From sequence record OR896821.1: 46,458 bases of DNA. One strand, written 5' to 3'. The notes under the pieces are model-generated. The model searched no databases and was not told where the DNA came from. It saw nothing but the letters and a program-made list of their open reading frames with translations. Positions 6,047 to 39,628 of this stretch are shown piece by piece (position 1 is the stretch's first letter; every line of letters begins with the position of its first letter). Source of the stretch: Escherichia phage Phagiculus. The translations under genes and the position numbers were made by a program.

Positions 6047-6446
6047 AAGTCGCAGCCCTCCGCAATACTGGTCGATATGCGATTACGGTTCCTGTTGGCT
6101 TAACTGGTCGAGGGTCAACTACCGTGTATGCTTCCTGGTCGACGTAGATGCGGTCACCTTCCGATATAACCGAATCAGCAGTAAAAATTCCACGACGGTC
6201 ACCGAAGATAATGATGTCACCATCAATGTCTCTTGCTTTGAACTCACGAATAACCCCCTTAACAGTATAAGAGCGGCCTGGAGACAAAACCTCACGTCCC
6301 GCCACAATCTGAACTGATGGAGCAGTTGTCGCCTCGAAAACACCATCACCATCTGACAGGAGGTTAATTCCTGTCTTTATCTGCTGTTGCAGAAGTCGAT
6401 GATCCATTAGCAGCACCCTCGCGATTTGCCCATAATAAGACCCCAA
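6039..6446 (-). CDS. head-tail joining (head closure-like) protein
   Basis: position between connector and gp10-like genes; overlapping gene boundaries. Confidence 0.35.
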   Translation of the reverse strand: MGSYYGQIARVLLMDHRLLQQQIKTGINLLSDGDGVFEATTAPSVQIVAGREVLSPGRSYTVKGVIREFKARDIDGDIIIFGDRRGIFTADSVISEGDRIYVDQEAYTVVDPRPVKPTGTVIAYRPVLRRAATYG

Positions 6447-6805
6447 CCGCCAAGTTTCTTGCGATAAAGCGCAAGATATAACTTGCCCCAGCTAGAACTA
6501 GATAAATCAGAAGAACTTTTAGTAGCAGTCGATGTGTCATATGTGATTGTGTACTCTCCAGAAAGTGAGTAGGACTTAACCCGATCAGATGATGTCTGGC
6601 TTGAGTCGTTCTGAGTCTTAAGTGCAATATCCTGACTAACCAGGTGTAACGTGTAGAATGCCAGAGCCTGAACCTTTTTGTCACCGAATCGCTCAAAGCA
6701 AACAAATAGCTTAGAAACTTCAACCCACGCGTTAAGAACTTCATCAGGCTGGCTTACTAAAGGTGGGTATAGCGTTCTCATGTATACAATTACTTCTTCG
6801 TTCAT
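6407..6805 (-). CDS. head-tail connector/adaptor-like protein
   Basis: position downstream of major capsid gene; GGAGG RBS. Confidence 0.35.
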   Translation of the reverse strand: MNEEVIVYMRTLYPPLVSQPDEVLNAWVEVSKLFVCFERFGDKKVQALAFYTLHLVSQDIALKTQNDSSQTSSDRVKSYSLSGEYTITYDTSTATKSSSDLSSSSWGKLYLALYRKKLGGWGLIMGKSRGCC

Positions 6806-6906
6806 CTTGTTCTACCTCCAGATAAATATCCAATTAACAATATTGCGCCAATTAAAGTTAATGGAGCAAAAAGAATCAATGTCATGACAAGAAAGAAAAT
6901 CAACAT
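6802..6906 (-). CDS. small hydrophobic peptide (34 aa, MLIFFLVMTLILFAPLTLIGAILLIGYLSGGRTR), not in ORF track
   Basis: GGAGG RBS 4 nt before ATG at 6906; stop TGA overlaps ATG of the next gene (ATGA coupling); single predicted TM helix. Confidence 0.4.
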   Translation of the reverse strand: MLIFFLVMTLILFAPLTLIGAILLIGYLSGGRTR

Positions 6907-6916
6907 GAAACCTCCA

Positions 6917-6945
6917 ATAAAAAAGGACGCCGAAGCGCCCATGTT
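6917..6945 (-). terminator. terminator-like hairpin with UUCG loop
   Basis: minus strand GGGCGC-TTCG-GCGTCC followed by TTTTTTATT. Confidence 0.45.
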
Positions 6946-6947
6946 TA

Positions 6948-7193
6948 TTATTTGTACTCGTTGCCAGTCTCGGCTTCAGAGATGGTCTTAGGCTCTTTTC
7001 GTTTGCGCTTGCTGGAAATCTCTTCTGCAATCTTTTTAGATTCTTTAGGGTCATCAGCAATTGTTATGCGACCCTCTGCGATAAGCTGCTTAATGCCAGC
7101 GCTAAGAACCTCAGTCTCAATAAAATCACCTGGAACGTAACCCTTACCATCAATCATGATAAAGCAAGCACCAGTATGTTCTAAACGAATCAT
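6948..7193 (-). CDS. hypothetical protein (81 aa, K/E-rich C-terminus)
   Basis: AAGGAG RBS before ATG at 7193. Confidence 0.4.
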   Translation of the reverse strand: MIRLEHTGACFIMIDGKGYVPGDFIETEVLSAGIKQLIAEGRITIADDPKESKKIAEEISSKRKRKEPKTISEAETGNEYK

Positions 7194-15889: not shown

Positions 15890-15965
15890 TGGCGTTCCGC
15901 GCTGGACTCGAACCAGCAACTGAGACTTAGGAGGTCTCTGCGTTATCCCGTTACGCCAGCAGAAC
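15890..15965 (-). tRNA. tRNA-Arg (anticodon CCU)
   Basis: hand-folded cloverleaf: 7-bp acceptor GTTCTGC/GCGGAAC, D-stem GCGT/ACGC, anticodon stem GAGAC/GTCTC with loop CTCCTAA, T-arm GCTGG-TTCGAGT-CCAGC, discriminator G, encoded CCA. Confidence 0.8.
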
Positions 15966-16150
15966 TTAAATTATAGCCGGTTACGGAATCCGGCGGGCTT
16001 TCACAATGCCCCGACAAGTCCGACTTACATCATTTGCGCTGACTGCGGTAATGTGACTAGGTCTCCTCGACCAGTTGGGCGTTGCGCCCCTCTTATGTCC
16101 ACAAGGCAAATAATAAAGGCTCACACATTTAAGTGCAAGCCCTTTTGTTA

Positions 16151-16270
16151 TCAATCTGATTGTTTGCCTGCTTTTTGATCATCAGTAGCGGATGCAATCA
16201 TGTAGACGATAATGAACCCTAGTGACCAGATAATCCAGGGAAATGCTTCTGCGTATAATTGATTAGTCAT
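16151..16270 (-). CDS. small membrane peptide (39 aa, MTNQLYAEAFPWIIWSLGFIIVYMIASATDDQKAGKQSD), not in ORF track
   Basis: ATG overlaps stop of upstream gene; one predicted TM helix. Confidence 0.35.
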   Translation of the reverse strand: MTNQLYAEAFPWIIWSLGFIIVYMIASATDDQKAGKQSD

Positions 16271-16502
16271 AAATATTCGCCCCATCCTCTCGCTTTCCAC
16301 ATCTTCCGGCGATATATCCGCAGACCCAGACGAACTTCATCTTCTCGACGATTGTGCTGATTGGACTATGGTACTCACAGATTACAGCCTTCATTATATC
16401 GTTATCTTGCTTCTGCTTAGCGGTTAACTTTTCCACTGCGTCGTTTAGTTTCTTAGCCTGAGCACGCACTGCGTTGAATTGTGGTTGAGTAAGTCCGAAC
16501 AT
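16263..16502 (-). CDS. hypothetical protein (79 aa)
   Basis: ORF in early minus-strand block. Confidence 0.5.
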   Translation of the reverse strand: MFGLTQPQFNAVRAQAKKLNDAVEKLTAKQKQDNDIMKAVICEYHSPISTIVEKMKFVWVCGYIAGRCGKREDGANIYD

Positions 16503-17089: not shown

Positions 17090-17132
17090 ATAGTACCGCA
17101 TCCTTGCGATTGATGTTTAGCAATTCGTGCTA
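17090..17132 (-). promoter_or_regulatory. conserved promoter module (IR TAGCAC-N3-TTGCTA plus -10-like)
   Basis: plus-strand tagcaattcgtgcta at 17118..17132; minus-strand TACTAT 22 nt downstream; leader ATTGAAACGA. Confidence 0.55.
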
Positions 17133-23222: not shown

Positions 23223-23247
23223 TAAAGGGGCTTACGCCCCTTTTTTA
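23223..23247. terminator. bidirectional terminator between convergent genes
   Basis: AGGGGC-TTAC-GCCCCT flanked by A-run and T-run. Confidence 0.55.
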
Positions 23248-23636
23248 TTGCCTACATATTTTAGTGAGAAGTAAGTCATTAGCCCCGCAATAAGCCCAGC
23301 CAGAATCCCCCAAGCAATAGAATCAACCCCAGAACTTTCGGAGCTATTAATCTCTATTTTTTCCGCATTAATTGAGTGCGCTGAGAGACCCGTAGCGGCT
23401 GTCTTTTTTCCGGCAGATGAATCTACATCCCTGTTAGTTGAGTTGCGCATATCGCTATCTGTGGCGCTAGATTTATCCGTTTGGTTAGATACTCCAACGC
23501 CAGTCTTTTGGTTAGACTCTCCAACCTGAGCAGTTGCTTCAATTCCATCTTTAGCAGGAAGTAAATCAGATACCGCAGAGAGGGCAGAGCAACCAGTCAG
23601 GAAGATAATTGCAGTTAGCGCAAGTGACTTAAGCAT
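23232..23636 (-). CDS. unimolecular spanin (T1 gp11-like)
   Basis: N-terminal lipobox LTGC, C-terminal TM helix, directly downstream of endolysin. Confidence 0.65.
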   Translation of the reverse strand: MLKSLALTAIIFLTGCSALSAVSDLLPAKDGIEATAQVGESNQKTGVGVSNQTDKSSATDSDMRNSTNRDVDSSAGKKTAATGLSAHSINAEKIEINSSESSGVDSIAWGILAGLIAGLMTYFSLKYVGNKKGA

Positions 23637-24100
23637 AGTTCCACCTCTGCATTTCTGCGGTTAACTAACCCTTTAGAAACAACCTTTTTGCCATTTACTG
23701 TAATCTTGTTGAACATCTTCAGCGCATTACATCCGCCATAAATGTCGCCCTGATTAATCTTTCTGATAGCCGTAGATTTACGCATAGCGCTTGTTCCGAC
23801 GTTAAAAGAGAAACTGTATAGTGCAGCCCTGGTATTAACCGGAACGTTCACATTCAATGCTTTATCAACAGCTAGTTGATGAATAGCTAGATGCTTAGCA
23901 AGGAGAGCATCACATTCTTTCTGTGTGTATGTCTTGCCTTTAATTACATCAGGGCCAGTAACCCCCTGGCATACCGTCCAAACACCAGCAACATCAAGGT
24001 ACGGCTTGTACTCAACGCCTTCATGCTTATTCAGGAATGGAACGGCAATGGCTATAGCGGAACCTACGGCGCCGCCAATAACTTTATTCTTTAGGTTCAT
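23615..24100 (-). CDS. SAR endolysin (GH24 lysozyme)
   Basis: E-x8-D-x5-T catalytic pattern (HEGVEYKPYLDVAGVWT) and N-terminal Gly/Ala-rich signal-anchor-release segment. Confidence 0.8.
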   Translation of the reverse strand: MNLKNKVIGGAVGSAIAIAVPFLNKHEGVEYKPYLDVAGVWTVCQGVTGPDVIKGKTYTQKECDALLAKHLAIHQLAVDKALNVNVPVNTRAALYSFSFNVGTSAMRKSTAIRKINQGDIYGGCNALKMFNKITVNGKKVVSKGLVNRRNAEVELCLSHLR

Positions 24101-24315
24101 TATTTACTCCTGATTCGCATAGCCTCACGAATATCTCCATCTTCAAGCGCCTTATGAAGTGCCTTACTGTCACGCCAGCGCAACCATGCGCCGAAAACAC
24201 CGAAGCACACAGCTATGATTAAGCCGATAATGCCGATTATTGTGTTGTCAGATAAGCCGCCACCCATAGCTACTCCGCTACCGGACAAAGCGGCTGCGTC
24301 GTAGAAATGTTTCAA
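24100..24315 (-). CDS. holin
   Basis: 71 aa, single TM, charged C-terminus, overlaps endolysin start. Confidence 0.6.
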   Translation of the reverse strand: MKHFYDAAALSGSGVAMGGGLSDNTIIGIIGLIIAVCFGVFGAWLRWRDSKALHKALEDGDIREAMRIRSK

Positions 24316-25206: not shown

Positions 25207-25431
25207 TCACACCTTCTTGGATTCGTTAGTGTAGCATTCAAGAATGATTTTCTTATCTTCAATTGAAAGTGATGAGTGATTTAACCAATCAACAATCGTA
25301 TTCACATCAAATCCTTCCAGGTAGATTGATTTACCTTGTTCACACAAATCAACTGAATTTGGTTTATCTGCTGCATCTGCGTTAACACTCGCCGCTGCCA
25401 TGAGGATTGTTGCAATAATCAGCTTCTTCAT
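25207..25431 (-). CDS. small secreted/periplasmic protein (signal peptide MKKLIIATILMAAASVNA)
   Basis: N-terminal signal peptide pattern; downstream of promoter module. Confidence 0.5.
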   Translation of the reverse strand: MKKLIIATILMAAASVNADAADKPNSVDLCEQGKSIYLEGFDVNTIVDWLNHSSLSIEDKKIILECYTNESKKV

Positions 25432-38651: not shown

Positions 38652-38693
38652 ATATACCCGTTCAGAAGCATCCTGTTTTGACTAATCGTGCTA
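38652..38693 (-). promoter_or_regulatory. degenerate conserved promoter module
   Basis: tgactaatcgtgcta (half-site degenerate); aaacag; GTATAT; leader contains hairpin CTGCTCA-AATC-TGAGCAG. Confidence 0.35.
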
Positions 38694-38869
38694 TTTTGTA
38701 TACCAGCGTAAAACTATCCAATTTACAGATTCCCCCACCTGCAACACCGCCATCACTTGATGTAACCGATGTATATAGAGTAAACAAGAAAAAATCACCC
38801 ACATCTATATCTATAGATAAATGCAGGTATGTATATGCTCGTAAAAATGAAGATTATACGCCCATCGCC

Positions 38870-39272
38870 TCATGAGCCCGCACCAACACTGGATGTAACT
38901 CATGTAAACGCTGTAACAGTAGTTTTTGCGCCCCTATCTATATATCCATATGCATTTGGCAACACCAGAAACAGAACTTAGTCATTTCAAAAAAACATAT
39001 CAACACAACCATAGAAGGTAGTTACACTATATACAAACAAATATAGTAATAATAATAATTACTCTAAACCCTTATTATATAAGGATTCTTTAGTGTAACT
39101 AATGCGTATCTGCGCGTAAAAAGCGTATACAATTTCCCGCGGGTCAGGATTGCATACATCGATTTACATAGGTTACGCGTATATCAAATAGCACGATTTG
39201 CTAAAGACTGACTGAAGCACCTTTGGTATAGTTACTCCATCGAAACGAAAAACACTTAATAAGGATTCAAAA
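38870..39272. repeat. AT-rich control region B, paralogous to 18670..19260
   Basis: same ordered sequence blocks as region A, ending in conserved promoter module. Confidence 0.6.
39189..39232 (+). promoter_or_regulatory. conserved promoter module
   Basis: tagcacgatttgcta, aagact, TATAGT at 39227..39232; leader TACTCCATCGAAACGAA identical to the one at 19222..19250. Confidence 0.6.
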
Positions 39273-39378: not shown

Positions 39379-39600
39379 ATGAAAAAGTTAATCGTTATCG
39401 CGGCAATGATGTTAGGCGGATGCTCTACGATGCCAGAGCGCACTTGTACGGCGATTTATGAGTCTGGTGGTATGAGTTACTCGGTTTATGTTTTTGGCAC
39501 GCAGAAGCGCGGCGAGGAGATTTTACTGAGGGCTGGGTATCCATTCTCGTTTCATTACGTGTCTGAGCGGAATTTTAGAGACCACGATTGTGGCGGTTGA
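39379..39600 (+). CDS. small lipoprotein (Cor/Llp-like superinfection exclusion candidate)
   Basis: signal peptide with lipobox LGGC (MKKLIVIAAMMLGGCS); 73 aa; convergent with the tail tip gene cluster. Confidence 0.5.
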   Translation: MKKLIVIAAMMLGGCSTMPERTCTAIYESGGMSYSVYVFGTQKRGEEILLRAGYPFSFHYVSERNFRDHDCGG

Positions 39601-39604
39601 TAAA

Positions 39605-39628
39605 GAAAAAGCCCCGAAAGGGGCTTAG
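39605..39628. terminator. bidirectional terminator between convergent genes
   Basis: AAGCCCC-GAAA-GGGGCTT with flanking A-run. Confidence 0.6.

Follow-up and report, generated by a model that had tools for sequence, protein, structure and literature searches.

Escherichia phage Phagiculus, whose 46,458-bp genome makes up the whole stretch of DNA that was analysed (the window), is a T1-like member of the Drexlerviridae and has approximately 80% nucleotide identity to Rogue1, Sd1, e4/1c, and MM01-type Drexlerviridae. Phages of the T1 type are well known for contaminating laboratories and also serve as therapy candidates. Three small open reading frames in this genome, designated P1, P2, and P3, are the subject here, together with the genes and regulatory features that surround them (Table 1). 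An earlier note had described them as one class of unannotated small hydrophobic peptides. The open reading frames themselves are as described, with correct coordinates and translations of 34–39 aa. However, only P3 is unannotated, as P1 and P2 are GenBank hypothetical proteins, and the three do not form a class. Their transcription contexts all differ, comprising two early-type operons (P2 and P3) and one late structural operon (P1). Cross-comparison of the three peptides gives similarity at the level of shuffled controls (z about 0), and the possibility that they are paralogues was rejected on this basis. The MTN start that two of them share, to which the note drew attention, is a coincidence: the peptides are mutually unrelated, and P2 homologues begin MHT.. 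or MNE... Based on the sequence comparisons described below, P1, P2, and P3 are very likely to be real genes that are unrelated to each other and that encode very small inner-membrane peptides with a single membrane pass, each placed by homology in its own small phage-restricted family.

Table 1. Small genes P1–P3, their neighbours, and the lysis cassette in the Phagiculus genome.
Feature	Coordinates	Strand	Details
gp45-like virion structural protein (T1)	6407..6805	-	phrog_302, E = 1.6e-33
P1	6802..6906	-	MLIFFLVMTLILFAPLTLIGAILLIGYLSGGRTR, 34 aa; GenBank WWD11005.1, hypothetical protein CPL00134L_CDS0010
Terminator-like hairpin	6925..6940	-	GGGCGCTTCGGCGTCC then T-run; between gp46-like gene and P1
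gp46-like 81-aa protein (T1)	6948..7193	-	phrog_2716, E = 2.9e-29; upstream of hairpin and P1
Terminator-like hairpin	16115..16144	-	6 nt past P2 stop codon
P2	16151..16270	-	MTNQLYAEAFPWIIWSLGFIIVYMIASATDDQKAGKQSD, 39 aa; GenBank WWD11017.1, hypothetical protein CDS0022
79-aa protein gene	16263..16502	-	phrog_303; upstream of P2
Conserved promoter-like repeat copy	17116..17132	-	heads operon that ends in P2
Spanin	23232..23636	-	lysis cassette
Endolysin	23615..24100	-	lysis cassette
Holin, 71 aa	24100..24315	-	lysis cassette
Promoter-like element and leader	39189..39250	+	TAGCACGATTTGCTAAAgac, ~20-nt spacer, TATAGT, tacTCCATCGAAACGAAA; upstream of P3; 10-phage alignment
P3	39273..39377	+	MTNFATNVLAFTFGVATTSFFVWVLLLASNFKGF, 34 aa; no entry in public protein collections for Phagiculus
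cor	39379..39600	+	Cor superinfection-exclusion lipoprotein, lipobox LGGC; phrog_1119, E = 5.7e-27; aligned with T1 Cor
GC-rich hairpin	39609..39626	.	between convergent cor and 223-aa membrane-associated protein gene; looks like a bidirectional terminator

For all three, the conserved reading frame, the surplus of synonymous differences, and the ribosome binding site (RBS) argue for coding status. In every homologue the proposed frame is free of stops, while the other two same-strand frames contain between one and seven. Synonymous differences are in excess for P1, P2, and P3 (binomial P between 4e-5 and 0.015), each selection statistic for these peptides of 34–39 codons being based on 15–49 substitutions. 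Within-family alignment scores lie 12–23 standard deviations over composition-preserving shuffles. Loss of the reading frame in relatives, which the earlier note had put forward as a means of refutation, is not what is observed: all three frames are kept, and all are under purifying selection.

The RBSs of P1, P2, and P3 match or surpass those of accepted genes. The energy predicted for pairing to the 16S rRNA tail is −9.9 kcal/mol for P1 (GGAGG), −8.7 kcal/mol for P2, and −6.0 kcal/mol for P3, compared with −5.4 kcal/mol for both the major capsid gene and cor. The background at random positions has a mean of −1.8 kcal/mol and a 5th percentile of −6.3 kcal/mol. The claim that each small gene has an RBS therefore stands, but the accompanying claim of a start/stop overlap with a neighbour is correct for P1 and P2 only. 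P3 overlaps nothing, and its stop lies 1 nt ahead of the cor ATG. An arrangement suited to translational coupling, as had been suggested, is borne out in all three cases by tight spacing to the neighbouring genes.

Kyte–Doolittle (KD) analysis recovers the one transmembrane-like helix that had been noticed in each peptide, in the form of a single membrane-length hydrophobic segment (best 19-aa windows of 2.71 for P1, 1.84 for P2, and 2.04 for P3). Such hydrophobicity is within chance, as 38 of the 425 six-frame open reading frames of 25–74 aa in the window contain a 17-aa segment with a mean KD value of at least 2.0. The case for these genes is carried by position, RBS, and conservation. Hydropathy and charge suggest that each peptide inserts as one helix. 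The C-terminus of P1 and P3 probably faces the cytoplasm, because their only basic residues are C-terminal. No family in PHROGs, Pfam, or NCBIfam matches P1, P2, or P3. Each peptide would bind a host or phage membrane protein and would have no enzymatic activity.

P1 is an insertion of approximately 105 nt that falls precisely on the gp45-like start codon, and its stop overlaps the gp45-like ATG (ATGA, 6802..6805). It occurs at an identical site in three of 16 compared genomes (Phagiculus, Rtp, and ETEP102) and is absent from 13 relatives, namely T1 and 12 others. In T1 and the relatives that lack P1, the gp46 stop, hairpin, RBS, and gp45 ATG are contiguous. The same hairpin is kept where P1 is absent, and it carries a terminator annotation in T1 and ETEP102. 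The earlier note had considered a peptide in the connector block unexpected. The peptide does exist there, but as a rare, lineage-restricted insertion rather than a conserved component of the structural module. As most relatives lack P1, it would be dispensable for virion assembly. P1 would be expressed late, having captured the original gp45-like RBS, and would in turn supply a new gp45-like RBS (GGAGG) within its own 3′ end. A frameshift fusion of P1 with gp45 was also considered and rejected, since the frame offset between the two differs between the window and Rtp.

In all three genomes, an open reading frame of 34–35 aa is inserted after the terminator hairpin that follows gp46 and before the gp45 start. 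The three members align with z = 12–14 relative to shuffles, and their invariant residues include ILLIG(F/Y) and GG. Between the window and Rtp, P1 has a pS of 0.85 and a pN of 0.35, the latter being similar to that of the adjacent gp45-like gene (0.39), while the comparison of Rtp with ETEP102 gives Sd 10 and Nd 5 (dN/dS 0.13). Of the same-strand frames, that of P1 alone stays open in each of the three genomes; an antisense frame across P1 is also open in all three. Beyond these genomes, when 1.84 billion representative proteins were scanned in full with P1 in HMMER, the only matches were P1 itself and a chance match in a 998-aa membrane protein. The degenerate DNA pattern of P1 matches Rtp alone in IMG/VR and nothing in JGI metagenomes, and distant blastn of P1 DNA yields only spurious short matches. 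The large protein search with N-terminally extended P1 and P2 queries returned only Phagiculus's own entries. In the phage collection, tblastn has little sensitivity for P1 when low-complexity filtering is applied, as the Rtp peptide recovered just Rtp.

P2 closes an early-type operon of small genes. Its start overlaps the stop of the preceding 79-aa gene by 8 nt (ATGACTAA), and an alternative start (ATG at 16285) would give a product of 44 aa. Given this position at the end of an early small-gene operon, P2 is probably a host-takeover or anti-defence accessory gene. The P2 family comprises 16 records. Its members are 39–44 aa in length and, in P2 and seven other phages, have the core PW(L/I)(I/L)WSLGFxI(V/I)YMI(A/S)xxDDxK. 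The eight-sequence alignment retains PWxxWSLGFxIxYMIxxxxDDxK together with one hydrophobic helix and a charged C-terminal tail. The pairing of P2 with the PAS7 homologue scores z = 23 over shuffles, and pS values of 0.67–1.0 compare with pN values of 0.27–0.38.

The P2 homologues are annotated as hypothetical proteins of 42–44 aa and are located in the early small-gene arrays of the seven other phages. Examples include ACG-M12_0004, MM01_00004, and ECH1_04, from Guelphvirus, Christensenvirus, and related Drexlerviridae, which have in common with P2 the core, the helix with its charged tail, and the early small-gene array. P2 differs from this family in its shorter annotated N-terminus (39 aa), with identities of 43–71%. 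It also differs in position, coming last, behind the gene for the phrog_303 protein, and preceding a terminator and tRNA-Arg. The degenerate DNA pattern of P2 detects one IMG/VR contig, which corresponds to IME542, and one 46.7-kb contig from a Nitratidesulfovibrio assembly, which is probably a phage contaminant. The 22-aa open reading frame found at the P2 position in Sd1-type phages was considered as a possible truncated P2. It shows no detectable similarity to P2 (z = −0.1), although the DNA alignment contains patchy matches.

P3 belongs to a widely conserved family. Homologues of 31–34 aa were detected by tblastn in 164 phage records, with 154 of the matches covering at least 80% of the query. 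Klebsiella phages are the largest group (127 records). An alignment of ten sequences defines the motif M(T/K)N..FGxAxTGFFVWVLxLASNF(K/N)GF, which reaches the C-terminus, and even the most distant pair scores z = 12.5 over shuffles. The dN/dS values range from 0.13 to 0.52, while in shifted control frames pS is below pN. A large protein search with an N-terminally extended P3 query found one Logan peptide (79% identical). The degenerate DNA pattern of P3 matches one contig in JGI metagenomes, and none of 185,579 bacterial and archaeal genomes. The closest described counterparts are the ‘putative integral membrane protein’ Sushi gp32 / CPT_Sanco_056 and the uncharacterised 34-aa Drexlerviridae proteins of UniRef A0A6B9LSB5, which resemble P3 in length (31–34 aa). 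They share with it FGxxATGFxxWVxxLAxxF(K/N)GF followed by the stop, as well as the upstream promoter and leader. However, P3 and the Webervirus peptides are only 47% identical, and the Webervirus gene sits between VRR-Nuc and dam, whereas P3 heads the cor unit in E. coli Drexlerviridae.

At all ten aligned loci, including that of Webervirus Sanco, P3 is the first open reading frame past a TAGCAC..TTGCTAAA promoter-like element and a CATCGAAACGAA leader. The element has 11 copies in the window, where 0.07 would be expected by chance. These copies have a common architecture and precede replication, recombination, and other early-type operons. A simple sigma-70 scan missed the promoter upstream of P3. 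The spacing from TTGCTA to the −10-like hexamer is non-canonical, and the conserved element was recognised only through comparison across phages and among its copies in the window.

P3 is usually followed by the gene for a superinfection-exclusion lipoprotein, either Cor or an analogue. The following gene is cor in MM01, Sadiya, RobRod40, JulesPiccard, BUCT-XGG-1, Sd1, and Sf12, as well as in one metagenome contig and one Logan contig. In Rao1 it is a gene for a different lipoprotein, and in Webervirus Sanco, the sole Klebsiella-group locus examined, P3 is followed by dam with no lipoprotein. P3 is near-invariant when the downstream lipoprotein is swapped (Rao1 versus Sd1). Conversely, T1 and T1-like phages carry cor without P3. 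The co-occurrence of P3 and cor is thus not obligate, as T1 has only cor, and P3 stands without cor next to it in Sanco and Rao1.

The P3/cor unit adjoins genes for a J-like tail-tip protein, an ‘outer membrane protein’, and a ‘membrane-associated protein’. In this it resembles the Cor / Llp cassette of FhuA-dependent phages (T1, phi80, N15, and T5), and P3 would share a transcript with the gene for a bona fide Cor lipoprotein. The published exclusion cassette consists of Cor and two larger proteins, with no small peptide described (PMC13164509, PMC8594841). [quoted passage not shown]

Judging from this arrangement, P3 would be made early, from one of the standard early/replication-type promoters of the phage, ahead of a receptor-blocking lipoprotein (Cor in this case). 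An early envelope or host-takeover function is its most likely role. A more specific proposal is that P3 might exclude superinfecting DNA at the inner membrane, complementing Cor at the outer membrane. This is possible but doubtful, and the link between P3 and superinfection exclusion is one of guilt by association only. The small phage inner-membrane proteins T4 Imm and HK97 gp15, which block incoming DNA, offer an analogy. Nevertheless, both differ from P3 in being larger, with two or more helices, and are not known to share sequence similarity with it. In a broader form, P3 might be an unrecognised early component of superinfection exclusion or envelope remodelling in the Drexlerviridae outside Tunavirus, although this is unlikely. 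P3 would then act on a constant inner-membrane target, such as the DNA entry route, while the variable lipoprotein would handle the outer-membrane receptor. A division of labour of this kind would explain (i) the constancy of P3 despite changes of lipoprotein; (ii) its persistence beside dam in Klebsiella phages without cor; and (iii) its invariable location directly behind an early-type promoter.

Three other explanations were weighed. It is rather improbable that, in P3 (and P1), translation of a short upstream open reading frame is what matters, feeding or tuning cor or the gp45-like gene, with the peptide as a by-product. P3 is always the first open reading frame past the promoter and lies 0–13 nt before the next gene (cor, another lipoprotein gene, or dam), and in Phagiculus the cor RBS (AAAGGA) is within the final P3 codons. 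Likewise, the gp45-like RBS is inside the 3′ end of P1, whose stop overlaps the gp45-like start. However, purifying selection acts on amino acids over the full length of the peptide, and so also on the transmembrane core far from the junction. The sequence of a leader peptide would be dispensable, which does not agree with dN/dS values of 0.13–0.52 and shifted frames that are not under purifying selection. Moreover, cor has its own RBS in most relatives, located in a 10-nt spacer past the P3 stop, and in relatives that lack P1 the same upstream RBS serves the gp45-like gene directly. A leader that senses membrane insertion, of the MifM/SecM type, was rejected for P3 on length. A 34-aa peptide is still within the ribosome tunnel at termination, and arrest in response to membrane insertion is therefore not feasible.

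The prospect that one or more of the peptides are holin-like, antiholin-like, or type I toxin-like, and depolarise the inner membrane for lysis timing or host shut-off, is slimmer still. Each of the three has one hydrophobic helix and a short charged tail, an architecture also seen in pinholins and type I toxins. The T1-type pinholin (phrog_2877) and other holins also resemble P1–P3 in small size, hydrophobic helix, and charged C-terminal tail. In addition, P1 is within a late operon, and the P2 homologue in phage ES is annotated ‘u-spanin’. Set against this, a complete T1-type lysis cassette lies elsewhere in the window (23232..24315), and P1, P2, and P3 (at approximately 6.8, 16.2, and 39.3 kb) are all outside it, with none adjacent. 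None of them resembles a holin, spanin, or toxin family in PHROGs, Pfam, or NCBIfam, and Pfam and NCBIfam give no match to small toxins of the Hok/TisB/Ibs type. The location of P2 and P3 behind early-type promoters is also a poor fit with lethal membrane damage. A spanin identity for P2 was rejected. Unimolecular spanins are proteins of approximately 130 aa with an N-terminal lipobox Cys and a C-terminal transmembrane domain, encoded in the lysis cassette. With 39–44 aa, no Cys, and no lipobox, P2 and its ES homologue do not fit this description, and the ES label is accordingly a misannotation. Least probable of all, to the point of being remote, is that some of the open reading frames, above all P1, are non-coding insertions whose T-rich sequence reads as hydrophobic by chance. 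Chance hydrophobic frames are indeed common in the window, as noted above, P1 has been found in three genomes with no further relative in any of the searches described, and the annotators of ETEP102 picked a different frame at the P1 site. Yet that alternative frame is closed in Rtp, while the P1 frame is intact and keeps 34–35 codons despite saturated synonymous sites between the window and Rtp. P1 also shows a synonymous excess (P = 0.0006–0.0025), a strong RBS, and an alignment score well above composition-matched shuffles (z 12–14), and support for P2 and P3, with 16 and 164 records, is far stronger.

P1, P2, and P3 are ordinary small accessory phage genes and not a new kind of system. Genes of this type are abundant in virulent phage genomes, and small genes in phage genomes have reportedly been catalogued by Fremin et al. 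(2022, Cell Reports). A further small-protein catalogue is available (PMC11364881). The entries of small-gene catalogues are like P1–P3 in being open reading frames of fewer than 50 codons with a frequent predicted transmembrane helix, missed or inconsistent annotation, and conservation within lineages, but the catalogues are lists and not functional families. What is gained here is three clean small genes, with the P3 family widely conserved, and no new mechanism. The full early gene set, especially genes co-expressed with Cor, bears on host takeover and on competition between phages.

Very small phage membrane proteins are inconsistently annotated, and in this instance P3 is missing from the Phagiculus record and a P2 homologue is mislabelled in ES. 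For the P1 homologues, the ETEP102 annotation uses the wrong frame and that of Rtp omits the gene. In sister phages, P3 homologues are annotated with variable N-terminal extensions, or the gene is left uncalled. One of the phages with a P2 homologue is classified as Autographiviridae.

Reading and translating the window confirmed the three small open reading frames proposed in the earlier note, at the positions it gave and here called P1, P2 and P3 (34, 39 and 34 aa). Each product contains one hydrophobic stretch of membrane length, with best 19-residue Kyte-Doolittle means of 2.71 (P1), 1.84 (P2) and 2.04 (P3), and the basic residues of P1 and P3 are C-terminal only. An equally hydrophobic stretch occurs in 38 of the 425 six-frame ORFs of 25–74 aa in the window, so hydrophobicity alone is unremarkable and the case must rest on position and conservation. 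All three have a ribosome-binding site (RBS), as had been claimed, with predicted Shine-Dalgarno pairing of -9.9 (P1), -8.7 (P2) and -6.0 (P3) kcal/mol, compared with a mean of -1.8 kcal/mol at random positions and -5.4 for each of the major capsid and cor genes. The claimed start/stop overlap with a neighbour holds for P1, whose stop shares ATGA with the start of the next gene, and for P2, whose start overlaps the preceding stop by 8 nt (ATGACTAA); P3 is adjacent without overlap, 1 nt separating its end from the next ATG. Likewise, only P3 is truly unannotated, as P1 and P2 are hypothetical proteins in GenBank (WWD11005.1 and WWD11017.1). The exact P3 sequence has no match in a collection of ~15 billion proteins.

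Features of the P1, P2 and P3 loci and copies of the promoter-like repeat
Feature	Coordinates	Strand	Remark
P1	6802..6906	-	product MLIFFLVMTLILFAPLTLIGAILLIGYLSGGRTR
P2	16151..16270	-	product MTNQLYAEAFPWIIWSLGFIIVYMIASATDDQKAGKQSD
P3	39273..39377	+	product MTNFATNVLAFTFGVATTSFFVWVLLLASNFKGF
Terminator-like hairpin, conserved	6925..6940		P1 lies just after it
Terminator-like hairpin	16115..16144		after P2
tRNA-Arg(CCT)	15890..15965	-	between post-P2 terminator and terminase genes
Promoter-like repeat	19179, 19677, 20767, 39189	+	
Promoter-like repeat	17116-17132, 18048, 25047, 25491, 28059, 30443, 35948	-	
Promoter-like repeat, weaker copies	38677, 4547	-	

The window is a complete genome (46,458 bp) of a T1-like siphovirus of the Drexlerviridae, identified by exact protein matches as Escherichia phage Phagiculus of the Citizen Phage Library (named in PMC10893117). 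By megablast, large parts show ~76–82% nucleotide identity to Rogue1, Jk06, Sd1, e4/1c, AHS24 and related E. coli and Shigella phages, and patches reach ~90% in MM01. Homologous loci were gathered for each peptide, and their reading frames and substitution patterns compared. The proposed frame is open in every homologue, while the other two same-strand frames contain one to seven stops. For P3, dN/dS is 0.13–0.52 against eight relatives (58–86% nucleotide identity); in the two shifted control frames pS is below pN in most comparisons, and a large synonymous excess is never seen. Synonymous sites of P2 are nearly saturated (pS 0.67–1.0; pN 0.27–0.38). The P1 copies of phages Rtp and ETEP102 are separated by 10 synonymous and 5 non-synonymous substitutions (dN/dS 0.13), and between the window and Rtp pS is 0.85 and pN 0.35, close to the pN of 0.39 for the adjoining gp45-like gene. 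The synonymous excess reaches significance in each of the eight comparisons tested (binomial P 4e-5 to 0.015), and alignment scores inside each family lie 12–23 standard deviations over composition-preserving shuffles. Scores between P1, P2 and P3 are at chance level in the shuffle test; therefore, these are three unrelated genes and the MTN start to which the earlier note drew attention is a coincidence, P2 homologues opening MHT.. or MNE...

P1, P2 and P3 are thus conserved protein-coding genes, each with a one-helix hydrophobic product and a defined transcription context. Chance can be ruled out as the origin of the P2 and P3 ORFs and is an unlikely one for P1. The view that these ORFs serve only as leaders or for coupling, their translation mattering rather than the product, is contradicted both by selection on the amino-acid sequence itself and by relatives in which cor or gp45 is expressed although the small ORF is missing. 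A role in lysis is improbable, since the window already has a complete holin-endolysin-spanin cassette at 23232..24315 and none of the three peptides matches any family in PHROGs, Pfam or NCBIfam. The peptides are small, phage-restricted, membrane-targeted accessory proteins of a known kind. Each would insert into the inner membrane and might act by binding another membrane protein. P1 and P2 are already annotated in Phagiculus and P3 in sister phages; none of this would come as a surprise to phage specialists.

P1 lies between a T1 gp46-like gene (phrog_2716) and the gene of a gp45-like virion structural protein (phrog_302). In T1 and twelve relatives (phiEB49, AHS24, Sf12, Sd1, phiKP26, e4/1c and IME253 types, and five IMG/VR genomes), the hairpin is followed directly by an RBS and the gp45 ATG, with no space for an ORF. 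A homologous 35-codon ORF occupies the exact P1 site only in Rtp, where it lacks annotation, and ETEP102. The sequence upstream of P1 in Rtp, tttattgtatggagctaatATG, is the one serving gp45 in P1-less relatives, so P1 sits exactly at the old gp45 start and uses gp45's RBS; a new GGAGG for gp45 is supplied inside P1's last codons. Further homologues were found neither among 1.84 billion representative proteins, nor by distant blastn, nor by searching IMG/VR and JGI metagenomes for a degenerate pattern. P1 is rare. The window's gp45-like protein is 74–76% identical to those of P1-less phages and only 42–47% to those of Rtp and ETEP102, so that the distribution of P1 implies its repeated loss or lateral gain. 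Its absence from most relatives means that P1 cannot be required to join head and tail. The annotated ETEP102_31 (locus 1464-1586) follows a frame that differs from the conserved P1 frame and is closed in Rtp, and is probably a misannotation.

P2 closes a small operon, in which it is preceded, in order, by a promoter-like repeat (17116), a 59-aa ORF, a 44-aa phrog_3955 protein and a 79-aa phrog_303 protein. It was found by tblastn in 16 phage records. Its homologue is an annotated 42–44-aa hypothetical protein in small early-gene arrays of seven other phages, namely ECH1/ACG-M12 (Guelphvirus), IME542 (Christensenvirus), MM01, Rao1, RobRod40, ES and PAS7, the last classified as Autographiviridae. 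The family core is PW(L/I)(I/L)WSLGFxI(V/I)YMI(A/S)xxDDxK. Translation of P2 might instead begin five codons upstream, at an in-frame ATG at 16285 (-), giving the family-typical 44 aa; Shine-Dalgarno pairing there is weaker (-3.7 versus -8.7 kcal/mol). The 'u-spanin' label on the ES copy (locus 2486-2620), a probable misannotation, is wrong because that protein is just 44 aa long and lacks a lipobox, and the true spanin of the window is in the lysis cassette. The closest relatives here (Sd1, phiEB49, Sf12 and AHS24 types), and also the phiKP26 type, carry at the P2 position a different, unannotated 22-aa hydrophobic ORF, MTELSIW(L/F)LAG(M/I)LTWIYFVVMA, without detectable similarity to P2. It overlaps a stop codon, either that of the phrog_303 gene or that of a 71-aa gene inserted there (locus coordinates about 1735-1801 or 1920-1988). 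The core motif of P2 also occurs in NZ_VSMK01000220.1, a contig of Drexlerviridae genome size (46,669 bp) from an assembly of Nitratidesulfovibrio liaohensis that probably reflects contamination by a T1-like phage. When the region is aligned with Sd1, phiEB49 and Sf12, a block of ~40 nt in front of the tRNA-Arg gene, CGGAGCATTGTGAAAGC.CGCCGGATTCCGTAACCGGC, is highly conserved.

P3 is far more widespread, with 164 phage records by tblastn (154 near full length), and strongly conserved as M(T/K)N..FGxAxTGFFVWVLxLASNF(K/N)GF. The 73-aa lipoprotein encoded directly downstream clearly belongs to the Cor superinfection-exclusion proteins (phrog_1119, E = 5.7e-27; alignment with T1 Cor). The pair converges on genes for a J-like tail-tip protein (1131 aa, a name taken from synteny with annotated relatives), an 'outer membrane protein' and a 'membrane-associated protein'. 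This arrangement is the cor/receptor-binding locus known from PMC13164509 and PMC8594841, both of which leave a small peptide unmentioned. P3 is followed by Cor in Sd1, Sf12, MM01, Sadiya, RobRod40, JulesPiccard and BUCT-XGG-1, and in one metagenome and one Logan contig. In Rao1 the next gene encodes a different lipoprotein, of 61 aa; in the Klebsiella Webervirus Sanco the next gene is dam, and P3 bears the annotation 'putative integral membrane protein'. T1 and T1-like 50-kb phages have cor without P3. Since P3 is nearly unchanged despite the lipoprotein swap (Rao1 versus Sd1) and is kept beside dam in Sanco, any target would be constant rather than receptor-specific. Its shared transcript with receptor-blocking lipoproteins hints at a role early in infection, at the envelope or in exclusion; an exclusion function as such is rather unlikely. 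Being very widespread and consistently first on an early transcript, the P3 family is the most useful lead. Its annotation is erratic: some homologues are left unannotated, some appear as 34-aa proteins and some are N-terminally extended to 51–76 aa. The Sadiya copy (locus 1226-1405), extended to 59 aa and called 'putative lipoprotein', is probably misannotated.

Upstream of P3, ten of ten aligned phages share aaTAGCAC-N3-TTGCTAAAgac, a ~20-nt spacer, TATAGT or TATTAT, and then ..CCATCGAAACGAA. Copies in the window have the architecture TAGCAC-N3-TNGCTAAA(gac), ~20-nt spacer, TATAGT/TATTAT-like hexamer, RBS and ATG, often with a CATCGAAACGA leader before the RBS. The first block occurs 11 times at <=1 mismatch (0.07 expected by chance), always intergenic and with a -10-like hexamer, RBS and gene start at fixed distance downstream. 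These copies head the Erf/SSB genes, an anti-repressor-like gene, large ORFs on both strands annotated as helicase/primase-type replication genes in relatives, and small-gene operons including that ending in P2; the capsid-to-tail operon has none at <=1 mismatch. This distribution points to P2 and P3 as early or middle class and P1 as late class, and P1 would, on promoter type, be a late-expressed accessory membrane peptide. The repeat contains the inverted repeat TAGCA/TGCTA and is kept in relatives as far as Klebsiella Webervirus; it may serve the family as early promoter together with an operator. Its spacing from TTGCTA to the -10-like hexamer, ~23 nt, is non-canonical, so it goes undetected in a simple sigma-70 scan. 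Between two divergent copies lies a ~475-nt non-coding stretch (38690-39100) with direct repeats of 133-nt period and several AT-rich palindromes, which may be a replication origin or regulatory region. Directly behind another copy, a 74-aa ORF (25207-25431, -) has a start, MKKLIIATILMAAAS.., that resembles a signal peptide, and may be a further secreted or lipoprotein-like early gene.
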